DNA of 64,000 nucleotides from a virus (Duplodnaviria > Caudoviricetes): IMG/VR virus record IMGVR_UViG_3300023047_000002, one strand, 5' to 3'. The notes below the pieces were generated by a model. It worked only from the letters and a program-made list of their open reading frames with translations, searched no databases and was not told the origin of the DNA. Below, piece by piece: positions 49,150 to 50,839 of this stretch; the first letter of the stretch is position 1, and the number at the start of each line of letters is the position of its first letter. Position numbers and translations under genes: made by a program.

Positions 49150-49188
49150 AGACACGAACAACACAACCAGACATGTGAACTACCAACC

Positions 49189-49340
49189 TCTTTCTGTGCC
49201 TCGGTTTCAATTTTAGCGAGTTTCTACTCGATCACTTCACCGCTGCGCGAGGAGGCAAGTGCCTCAGCATAAAGACGGTCTTTCTCGGTGTTATAGGTGT
49301 TGTTGTAGATTTCTCTGCACGATTCTTTAACGGTTGGCAT
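49189..49340 (-). pseudogene. Truncated 5' fragment of the gene downstream of the methyltransferase (probable cognate endonuclease)
   Basis: GGAGG RBS, ATG overlapping the MTase end; MPTVKESCREIY...EVIE*KLAKIETEAQKE has an internal TAG and is cut at the hairpin. Confidence 0.6.
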
Positions 49341-50505
49341 CTATGTTCGCCTCCAATATCTCTGCGATTTTTTTGCCCCAAGCATAAGCAAGCAGAGGAG
49401 GAACAGCATCGCCTATCTGCTCGTATTTGTCTTGTGTAGTGCGGTCAATGTGTGGAACAAGATAAGGACCACCACAAAAGTCATAAGAGTCTGGGAATGA
49501 TTGCAATCTTGCACATTCACGAACCGTGAGAGCACGATTATGGTTCGGATGCACAAATTCATCCAGACAGTGACTTGTTACGGTCGGAGAAGGTTCTCCG
49601 CTAATCAAGCGGTAATTTCGCTTGATAAACATCTTCTTGGGCAAGATTCTCTCTGCCTGTAATGCCTCTCGCTCCTCGCCTGTGTATCGGTCGAAAAGGT
49701 CTTTCAAACTTTCGCCCTGTTTCAGCAGTTCGAATCGTTGCAAGGTACAGGCACGATGTTTCATAGGTTTGTGGTAAGTGATTTCTTTTACTTCGCCACG
49801 ATTCCAGAAAGATGCATTTTTCATCAGCAAGGAGAAAGCGCTCTCTGTTCCAGTGTAGGTGGTGCCTTCTTCCTCTGTGTTTGGAATGACATTCGGCAAA
49901 CCTGCAAATGCCTCTGCGACAGTTACCTCTTTGTTGCAAGTCGGAACAGGTGCAGACAGCAACCATTTCGGGTCTTTGCTTGCGAGGATAAAATATCTCT
50001 TTCTCCGTTGGGGAACACCGAACTGTGTGGCAGAGAGAACGACCTCAATGTAATTGCCGTAACCTGCCTCGGTCAATTCTCGTTTCAGTACATCAACAAT
50101 CAATTCCTTAGAGGTTTTCTCCACGGTCTTGGTTGTGATGGCTGGCACATTCTCGAATAGAATCATTTTCGCATTTGCGATTTGAGCAATGCGAATTCCC
50201 TCACGGAATAAAAACTGTCTGTCATCGTAGAAAGAACGAGAGGTATTGCCCGCAGTAGAAAAGGTTTCGCACGGCATACCAGATGTAACAAGGTCAATCC
50301 CTTCTTTAGGAATAAAGGGCAGAATCTGCTCTGCAGTGACCTTGCGAATATCGGAATGAATGACATAAACTTCTGGATGGTTCGCAGAATAAGTCTCGCA
50401 ACAACTCTTTATGTATTCAATGGCAACCTTGGTGTCAAATCCTGCGGCGTGCAAACCTGTGCAGATGCCACCTGGGCCAGCAAAGCAATCTATATGTGTT
50501 AGCAT
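49327..50505 (-). CDS. C5-cytosine DNA methyltransferase (bacterial type II RM-like)
   Basis: DCFAGPGG, GMPCETFS, FENV, PQRRKR, RALTVRECARLQSFPD, QIGDAVPP; GGAGGTG RBS. Confidence 0.93.
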   Translation of the reverse strand: MLTHIDCFAGPGGICTGLHAAGFDTKVAIEYIKSCCETYSANHPEVYVIHSDIRKVTAEQILPFIPKEGIDLVTSGMPCETFSTAGNTSRSFYDDRQFLFREGIRIAQIANAKMILFENVPAITTKTVEKTSKELIVDVLKRELTEAGYGNYIEVVLSATQFGVPQRRKRYFILASKDPKWLLSAPVPTCNKEVTVAEAFAGLPNVIPNTEEEGTTYTGTESAFSLLMKNASFWNRGEVKEITYHKPMKHRACTLQRFELLKQGESLKDLFDRYTGEEREALQAERILPKKMFIKRNYRLISGEPSPTVTSHCLDEFVHPNHNRALTVRECARLQSFPDSYDFCGGPYLVPHIDRTTQDKYEQIGDAVPPLLAYAWGKKIAEILEANIDANR

Positions 50506-50668
50506 TGTGGCACACCTCCGTAGGTGTAGATACAAAAATTCATCATATATTATAGCATAAAGGGTCGAAAAAGCCATAGGATTTTGTAAAAAAGATATGA
50601 CGAAATTTCGACATATCAAAAAAGCAGAGGCAACCCACTAAAGCAGGTTGGCTTGCGGCTCGCCTCTG

Positions 50669-50839
50669 TTAAATGCCTGAATTGCCATTATCGGAAATGT
50701 CCCGAAGACGGTCAAAATGTTCATTAAGAATTGACATGATTGCCAAGTCTTTCTTTGCAAGGTAATCCATGAGTTCAATCAACACCTTGGACAAGTACTT
50801 GATGTTCTCATCAGCCATAATCTCTTCATCTGTTCTCAT
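50669..50839 (-). CDS. Small hypothetical protein
   Basis: GGAG RBS and its own TGGTGCTG promoter; the stop codon overlaps the element boundary. Confidence 0.6.
   Translation of the reverse strand: MRTDEEIMADENIKYLSKVLIELMDYLAKKDLAIMSILNEHFDRLRDISDNGNSGI

Follow-up and report, generated by a model that had tools for sequence, protein, structure and literature searches.

How does a bacterial DNA methyltransferase gene come to lie between the two halves of a single hairpin in a phage genome? The question is raised by a locus in a 64,000-nt stretch of a Caudoviricetes (Duplodnaviria) genome, IMG/VR record IMGVR_UViG_3300023047_000002, analysed here over its full length and called the window. 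An earlier reading of its letters, the original prediction, had proposed that a fragment of a host restriction-modification (RM) operon was captured inside an end hairpin of an insertion sequence (IS) of the IS200/IS605 type. We consider it highly probable that a host RM fragment was joined into this hairpin by illegitimate recombination and now acts as an anti-restriction moron. The observation behind the original prediction was confirmed and most of its interpretation upheld, whereas its likening of the hairpin to an integron site can be kept only in a loose sense. Coordinates of all features are collected in Table 1.

A methyltransferase cassette splits a hairpin

The left end (LE) part of the split mini-element is made up of a 17-nt spacer whose last four bases are the guide-like CAAG, the 5′ arm, a TTTA loop and most of the 3′ arm; the short right end (RE) part lies at the other side of the cargo. 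CAACC is found twice, at 49184-49188 and at 50631-50635. The latter copy forms the last 5 nt of the LE part and is a microhomology with the donor described below. Both hairpin halves and both CAACC copies were where they had been predicted. The left 14-mer (49175-49188) has two exact matches in the 64 kb, here and at 61403, and the 16-mer pattern of the right flank is matched exactly only at 50646 and 61427. Rejoined minus one CAACC copy, the halves make a 47-nt element with a 10-bp stem (-16.3 kcal/mol). Its resemblance to the intact element at 61403-61449, put forward in the original prediction, amounts to 38 identical positions over 47 nt, and 39 of 47 are shared with the orthologous intact element of a relative, L074. 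Identical junctions were recovered in independent assemblies (ERZ27246314, SRR7549215, SRR7549214 and ERZ27246275; at least four samples and two assemblers), which makes an assembly artefact very unlikely.

The cargo comes from the interior of a bacterial RM island

The cargo encodes an intact C5 cytosine DNA methyltransferase (MTase). Apart from this phage, the exact MTase protein was found on a single further kind of contig, the bacterial L005 (Logan SRR28154309; 10.8 kb). There the MTase gene is followed by an overlapping and complete gene for a 292-aa nuclease, which matches PF18643 and is similar to BsaWI (PDB 4ZSF; 2.5e-99). A blastn search with 49189-50630 had been expected to reveal a bacterial MTase-endonuclease operon whose homology stops at both junctions, and it did so: window 50635..49187 aligns to L005 3870..5319 with 99.79% identity over 1450 bp. 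Only two substitutions separate the cargo from L005, both in the nuclease stub, for which the chance is about 0.01 under a uniform model. The upstream junction falls in the donor within the 4-nt loop of its own terminator hairpin, with 5 nt (CAACC) in common with the phage hairpin. The downstream junction lies inside nuclease codon 51, with 2 nt (CC) in common. In the alignment of the junctions with L005 we found no IS half-sites, hairpin or IS end in the donor, but only these 5-nt and 2-nt microhomologies; a donor carrying half-sites would have spoken against the original prediction.

The MTase protein of the phage is 100% identical to that of the donor, and its motifs FAGPG, PCE, ENV and QRRKR (motifs I, IV (PC), VI (ENV) and VIII) are intact. 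The open reading frame (ORF) of the nuclease starts at 49340, overlaps the MTase gene and is cut after codon 51, with loss of the catalytic domain; it carries the changes S37I and E39stop (GAG to TAG, 49224-49226). Since only nuclease codons 1-51 remain, with a stop at codon 39, the phage gene is an orphan MTase and not an RM system. The cargo therefore has the predicted make-up, namely a full C5-MTase with a GGAGGTG ribosome-binding site (50513-50519) and the start of an overlapping gene that is cut at the junction and contains a TAG. The proposal that the phage took the MTase of a bacterial RM operon and lost the nuclease likewise agrees with an intact MTase and 51 of 292 nuclease codons, as against the full operon of L005.

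L005 looks chromosomal, to judge from the genes next to the operon (an RlmD-type methyltransferase, phosphoglucomutase and others). Two sister strains without the RM genes, L063 and L064, are about 97% identical to L005 on both sides. Since such close strains lack the operon, the RM genes form a 2.6-kb island, and the piece found in the phage comes from within this island. The island (L005 3450-6047) replaces 83 bp (L063 5305-5387) and gives the adjacent RlmD-type gene a different 3′ end (532 versus 441 aa). L063 comes from the NCBI metagenome-assembled genome (MAG) GCA_017629415.1, and L064 is from a ruminant sample; proteins of this MAG fall into 90%-identity clusters with the chromosomal neighbours in L005. 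Any naming of the host is tentative, the only label obtained, that of this MAG, being 'Proteobacteria bacterium'. The order MTase then nuclease was seen in 12 of the 12 species genomes checked. Nuclease relatives are present in 41 genomes, the closest ones in species genomes belonging to Clostridia and Oscillospiraceae MAGs (78-82%). A complete bacterial operon, a conserved gene order and a phage piece internal to the island together indicate a transfer from the bacterial island to the phage.

Related phages carry empty sites and other inserts

According to the original prediction, relatives without the MTase should have an intact hairpin at this exact site, and L073, L074 and L075 do. In L073 and L074 a homologue of the 56-aa phage ORF that abuts the mini-element (93% identical) is followed by the intact 47-nt element, then by the same terminator and tape-measure stop. 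L075 has the same ORF (82% identical) and an intact element in a different context. Exact look-up of the 56-aa protein returned only MTase-bearing contigs, and the empty sites came through the 93% and 82% homologues. Window 53321..50631 corresponds to L074 1..2709 and window 49188..47143 to L074 2705..4756. Because these flanks abut on L074 with a 5-nt overlap, the cargo is a clean insertion: all phage bases were kept, and the insert is now flanked by 5 bp.

Other relatives show further states of the locus. L001 and L052, in which the adjacent 242-aa gene is 88-93% identical at the amino acid level, have neither the 56-aa ORF nor the MTase, and a single family hairpin. In L054 (242-aa gene 74% identical) the same hairpin is followed by other cargo, a 131-aa ORF, and a 6-bp repeat of the stem end flanks the insert. 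The closest cargo-free relative, L076 (95-97.5% nucleotide identity), shares its accession series with the donor contig L005; it has an insert of about 39 bp in the hairpin loop region, flanked by an 8-bp repeat. Other cargoes at the same hairpin had also been anticipated, and its inserts in the window, L054 and L076 suggest a hotspot. On L074 about 109 bp lie between the two stop codons, so that three independent inserts in the 22-nt hairpin have a crude chance of (22/109)^3, or about 0.01; the inserts of L054 and L076 may, however, be a transposable unit of their own.

The 131-aa cargo of L054 (5051-5547) is 98% identical in protein and 97% in DNA to a window ORF at 11210-11605 (minus strand); elsewhere the two phages are about 75-78% identical. 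The ORF gave no family match, and its sequence looks like that of a mobile cassette. A recurrent motif, about 26 nt long with the core GGTGTACGCAAAG, is found ahead of genes at window 11651-11679, at G001 12675 (G001 being a related phage of 138 kb) and at L075 588. L054 has it at 5057-5069 and 5571-5583 as an inverted pair around the 131-aa cargo, with the 6-bp direct repeat, and L076 1700-1745 holds a 39-bp version with the 8-bp repeat. This motif could be a second family of small mobile elements or a phage promoter motif. As inverted copies bound it, the 131-aa cargo may move by a mechanism of its own.

The hairpin is an IS200/IS605-type end

The hairpin belongs to a family with about 15 members across the window, G001, L052 and L054, which have a 22-nt core (9 + 4 + 9), a TTTA or TAAA loop and covarying stem positions. 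On the minus strand of the window the layout is TTAC, a 17-nt spacer ending in AAAG or CAAG, the 22-nt hairpin, and an 8-nt tail ending in TCAC or TGAC; TTAC lies 17 nt 5′ of the foot in four of six LE copies. In IS608, TTAC is found 19 nt 5′ of the left hairpin with the guide AAAG, and the right cleavage sequence TCAA lies 10 nt 3′ of the right hairpin with the guide GAAT (PMC3201880, PMC5934647). At the right ends GAAG occurs with TCAC in five copies and CAAG with TGAC in two, which is the covariation predicted by the IS608 guide-cleavage rule.

Three tnpB genes each (PF07282, up to 1e-27) are present in the related phages G001 and G002 (228 kb). Each of the G001 copies is preceded by a family hairpin at a distance of about 200 nt, and a second one, ending in TAGTTCAC or TAGTTGAC, lies at the stop codon or directly behind it; in G002, family hairpins adjoin the tnpB genes. 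A Y1 TnpA (PF01797) was not found in G001, in G002 or among 32 window ORFs. From the IS608-like geometry, the flanking of tnpB and the lack of a detected Y1 TnpA, the hairpins are IS200/IS605-type ends, most likely of tnpB-only elements and of their miniature derivatives, and the IS200/IS605 label of the original prediction was well chosen. Geometry and tnpB flanking also led us to drop the idea that they are phage promoter or terminator elements, or elements like the promoter early stem-loops (PeSLs) of T4-type phages.

Two-ended mini-elements with an LE and an RE hairpin occur twice in the window, and the longer of them aligns to the LE, the start of tnpB and the RE of one G001 tnpB element. 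The 61403 element is missing from G001 (at 85880) as a clean 44-bp indel, with borders 3-6 nt off the IS608-rule prediction; a 6-bp helix (TACCAA/TTGGTA) closes the missing 44 bp. What looked like an orphan right-end tail at G001 3851 was rejected as a chance match.

The hairpin core was seen in both orientations, with loop TAAA or TTTA (L073 versus L074 2689-2710; window 3045-3066; L052 47-68). The flip between L073 and L074 at the same locus is a flip-flop inversion typical of palindromes. In some copies (window 12215-12252; L001 6725-6762) the right-end tail is mirrored on the left, which gives long, near-perfect intergenic palindromes and looks like hairpin-templated conversion.

How the fragment may have been joined

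The ancestral order would have been the 56-aa ORF, the 47-nt mini-element with its fused ends and one 22-nt hairpin, the terminator, and the convergent stop of the tape-measure-like gene. During infection, 1,442 bp from the interior of the RM island would have been joined into the 3′ arm of the hairpin. The joining was probably a microhomology-mediated illegitimate recombination, the shared stretches measuring 5 and 2 nt at the two junctions, and not catalysed by a transposase. It may have been triggered by a break at the hairpin that was repaired with a captured host fragment, or by a stalled replication end that switched template to host DNA and back. Both junctions are in the 3′ arm of the stem, and the upstream breakpoint of the donor is in a hairpin loop too. 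That the break lies in the stem and away from the TnpA cut sites had been noted in the original prediction; the junctions are in fact 9 nt from the predicted right cleavage site. As the junctions are not at TTAC or TCAC cut sites and the donor has no IS end, a microhomology route is favoured over TnpA. Microhomology repair at the hairpin, which the original prediction had offered as its alternative, is thus the better-supported mechanism.

Several points weigh against this reconstruction. The mechanism is deduced from the sequence of the junctions, by which break repair and template switch are indistinguishable, and the second junction has a microhomology of 2 nt only. A tnpA gene elsewhere in the phage or in the host is possible. 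The island is mobile, so that the organism of L005 need not be the actual donor or the host of the phage. Finally, the WCCGGW specificity discussed below depends on the similarity of the donor nuclease to BsaWI.

The competing explanations must be set against the same junctions. A Y1/HUH TnpA or an integron-like recombinase might have recognised the hairpin as an attC-like site. The hairpin is indeed a genuine IS200/IS605-type end, it bears other inserts in L054 and L076, and repeats of 5-6 bp flank the inserts of the window and L054. However, the junctions are within the stem and away from the predicted cut sites that follow TTAC and TCAC, neither a hairpin nor an IS end was seen in the donor, and the 32 scanned window ORFs yielded no recombinase and, like G001 and G002, no PF01797 match. 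The three inserts also sit at three hairpin positions with repeats of 5, 6 and 8 bp, whereas IS200/IS605 transposition yields no duplication (PMC3201880). Site-specific capture therefore appears distinctly improbable. What stands of the attC-like capture site in the original prediction is that different genes occupy the same hairpin; beyond that the analogy is loose, as the cargo has its own predicted promoter, neither an integrase nor a TnpA was found in the ORFs scanned, and the donor carries no recombination site. It is also unlikely that the fragment entered another phage or IS copy first and was then moved by homologous recombination between IS-end hairpins, in the manner of PeSLs. IS-end hairpins are indeed found where the synteny of the window with G001 breaks, and phage-to-phage movement occurs, as the L054 cassette with its 98% identity to a gene elsewhere in this phage indicates. 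But the flanks fit the empty site without an extra hairpin copy and the left half retains just 6 nt of stem. The 99.8% homology to the island ends at microhomologies and leaves little time for an intermediate, and the exact MTase was found in no context beyond this phage and L005.

A transfer in the reverse direction, in which the bacterium got the MTase from the phage or both got it from an unseen element, might be imagined because comparison with L063 and L064 shows the RM island to be inserted in L005, and hence mobile. Yet the phage piece is internal to the island and has 51 of 292 nuclease codons, while the nuclease gene is complete in L005 and in 41 genomes, and we judge this very improbable; a third-party donor with the same island would be possible and would leave our reading unchanged. 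Least credible of all is a chimera of a phage and a bacterial contig. Both sequences are metagenomic, but the same junctions recur across the samples and assemblers listed above and both fall in one 22-nt hairpin that is restored on rejoining. Illegitimate recombination of a host RM fragment into the hairpin thus remains our preferred explanation.

A self-contained unit with a probable protective role

With the fragment, the phage would have received the promoter region of the donor, the ribosome-binding site and the whole MTase gene, in other words a self-contained 'moron'. A sigma70-like pair of hexamers at 50619-50592 is a predicted promoter upstream of the MTase. A 24-bp near-perfect palindrome (50594-50617), identical in the donor, overlaps this predicted promoter and may be an operator for autoregulation of the MTase, to judge from its symmetry and position.

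Downstream of the 56-aa ORF, the terminator arm and U-tract of the donor pair with the phage sequence CAGAGGC (50662-50668) in a composite terminator (RNA fold -28.4 kcal/mol, z -3.8). That L073, L074 and L054 also have CAGAGGC shows it to be native to the phage. The LE spacer of the phage starts with CAGAGGCG (50661-50668), which equals the 5′ arm of the donor terminator (L005 3858-3866). Because CAGAGGCG is itself native to the phage (it is in L073 and L074), its match with the donor arm is due to chance or was selected. The composite terminator would insulate the moron upstream, and the old bidirectional terminator, which is also found in the cargo-free relatives L073 and L074 and in L054, would close it downstream, where it is now predicted to end the MTase transcript as well. 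The unit thus has the layout of a moron, a promoter, a gene and a terminator between conserved phage genes (promoter and terminators being predictions). It is absent from L052, L073, L074 and L001, and its G+C content is 44.9% versus 42.6%.

By analogy with the nuclease of the donor operon, the MTase most likely methylates (W)CCGG(W) on the phage DNA, and would thereby protect it from the BsaWI-like nuclease of hosts that bear the island. Expression of the gene, its specificity and its protective role are all read from sequence. The 64 kb contain 38 WCCGGW sites (observed/expected 0.97); a BsaWI-like nuclease would therefore cut the phage often, and a matching MTase would protect it. An ArdA-type antirestriction protein is also encoded in the window.

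Comparison with known systems

The LlaI methylase of pTR2030 and phage phi50 (reportedly described in Hill et al. 1991) are said to offer an earlier case of a phage MTase of host RM origin. Orphan MTases acquired from host RM systems are known, for instance, in lactococcal 936-type phages (PMC4190342). The present case has in common with them that the phage is of lytic type, that its MTase stands alone and corresponds to a type II RM system of a host, and that protection from the cognate nuclease is expected. It differs by a donor at 99.8% identity, junctions resolved to the base, a nuclease stub left as a scar and entry at a transposon-end hairpin. Like other phage morons, the unit has its own promoter region and ribosome-binding site, is bounded by terminators, lies between two conserved phage genes and is slightly off in G+C content, but here the origin and the junctions are known, and phage and donor sequence both contribute to the upstream terminator.

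Among transposable elements, the hairpin is closest to the ends of IS608-type elements, of their miniature derivatives, similar to palindrome-associated transposable elements (PATE) or repetitive extragenic palindromes (REP), and of tnpB-only IS. A subterminal 22-nt imperfect palindrome, the TTAC/AAAG geometry, the TCAC tail and the flanking of tnpB in related phages are all shared. It differs from IS608 in its spacings (17 and 8 nt versus 19 and 10), in that no TnpA was found, and in that the event described here is an insertion into the hairpin, whereas the element itself did not transpose. REP palindromes are targets of insertion sequences (PMC1525189). They too are extragenic, related to IS200/IS605 ends and repeatedly hit by insertions, but the insert in the window is a non-mobile chromosomal fragment and not an IS. 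PeSLs of T4-type phages are repeated intergenic stem-loops at module borders (PMC2839356, PMC4122927), and here as well short repeated stem-loops border variable segments in large myovirus-like genomes. However, PeSLs combine a sigma70 promoter with a terminator and act through homologous recombination, in contrast to IS ends and a probable illegitimate recombination with bacterial DNA; the element contains no promoter-like pair of hexamers, and most copies lack a U-tract past the hairpin. With integron attC sites the locus shares a folded hairpin site and different genes at the same site in relatives. It differs by having no integrase or attI, no recombinase among the 32 scanned ORFs, no hairpin site in the donor, a cargo that has its own predicted promoter and brings no attC, and variable junction positions.

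Phage uptake of host methylases is accepted, but usually inferred from distant similarity, and here the event was caught early. What is new is the finding together of a near-identical donor, a nuclease scar and empty sites, as well as entry through a decayed tnpB-transposon end in a phage. The locus offers a base-level view of a virulent-type phage picking up host DNA, and would provide a direct phage-host link for an uncultured gut or rumen phage of about 240 kb.

Hairpins as possible entry points for foreign DNA

Insertions seem to have hit the 22-nt hairpin of this locus at least three times independently, by the RM fragment in the window, by the 131-aa cassette in L054 and by the 39-bp insert in L076. 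Elsewhere the window and G001 are colinear, and breaks often touch family hairpins. One synteny break falls exactly after TCAC at 55150, and G001 has a 1.66-kb tnpB element at window 45033-45145. IS200/IS605-end hairpins in large phages might therefore be structure-specific, transposase-independent entry points for foreign DNA, a generalisation that we put forward tentatively and with more doubt than confidence. The L054 cassette favours the notion of a hairpin that is often hit, but also speaks against this extension, since it weakens the case for one common mechanism of capture. If tnpB-type hairpins were preferred landing sites, transposon decay would be linked to phage genome plasticity, and decayed transposon ends would offer phages a general means of sampling the genes of hosts and phages.

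Beside the hairpin at window 12223, G001 has an extra 2.2 kb (G001 128634-130916; window 12284) that includes a homologue of window ORF 6065-6637, located elsewhere in this phage. The terminator hairpin whose 3′ arm holds the junction of this insert is an ordinary one, and GGAC is repeated at both ends.

Genomic context of the locus

Table 1. Positions of the features discussed in the text, in window coordinates.
Feature	Position	Strand	Remarks
Right (RE) part of split mini-element	49175..49188	minus	last 6 nt of 3′ arm and 8-nt tail TAGTTCAC
Left (LE) part of 47-nt IS200/IS605-type mini-element	50631..50668	minus	
Cargo, 1,442 bp copied from inside a bacterial BsaWI-type RM island	49189..50630	minus	
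Intact C5 cytosine DNA methyltransferase, 392 aa	49327..50505	minus	Pfam PF00145 (DNA_methylase), 4.8e-58
BsaWI-like restriction endonuclease remnant	49189..49340	minus	codons 1-51 of 292
Donor-derived MTase upstream region, 112 bp	50506..50617	minus	identical to donor
Donor terminator 3′ arm and U-tract	50618..50630	minus	from junction alignment
Pre-existing bidirectional terminator	49119..49149	not applicable	13-bp stem; between cassette and tape-measure-like gene
56-aa phage ORF, function unassigned	50669..50839	minus	TAA stop abuts left end of mini-element
Intact 47-nt fused LE/RE mini-element	61403..61449	minus	reference copy of the original prediction
Two-ended mini-element, about 320 bp, LE and RE hairpin	2763..3085	minus	internally deleted tnpB element
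Two-ended mini-element, about 212 bp, LE and RE hairpin	57509..57720	minus	
Tape-measure-like gene	45126-49112		convergent with MTase cassette
T4-like portal gene	51737-53368	minus	

The window belongs to a large phage and also contains genes for an Ant/Bro protein and baseplate gp25, and a 243-kb metagenomic contig carries a stretch identical to its sequence. The 56-aa ORF is called as a gene on L004, L049 and L050; it has no Pfam or PHROG match, and its homologues in relatives (82-93% identity) are followed by the same mini-element. INPHARED phages gave no DNA match to window 48000-52000, no Rfam match and no tRNA were found in the window, and an exact search of IMG/VR for the rejoined junction returned no match. 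In IMG/VR, neither a 78-aa ORF nor the 131-aa cargo led to related viral loci, and distant relatives (P0127) differ in synteny and are uninformative for this locus.

Pfam matches among the 32 window ORFs include the ArdA antirestriction protein (2.9e-32), Fic/DOC, a formate/nitrite transporter, dNK, dUTPase and a dCTP-deaminase-like protein; a Pfam scan of 10 ORFs did not place the ArdA and Metallophos matches on individual ORFs. GATC is strongly depleted in G001 (43 sites in the whole record, observed/expected 0.08) and only mildly in the window (0.52), a contrast that suggests different restriction pressures or a Dam-type difference between the two phages.

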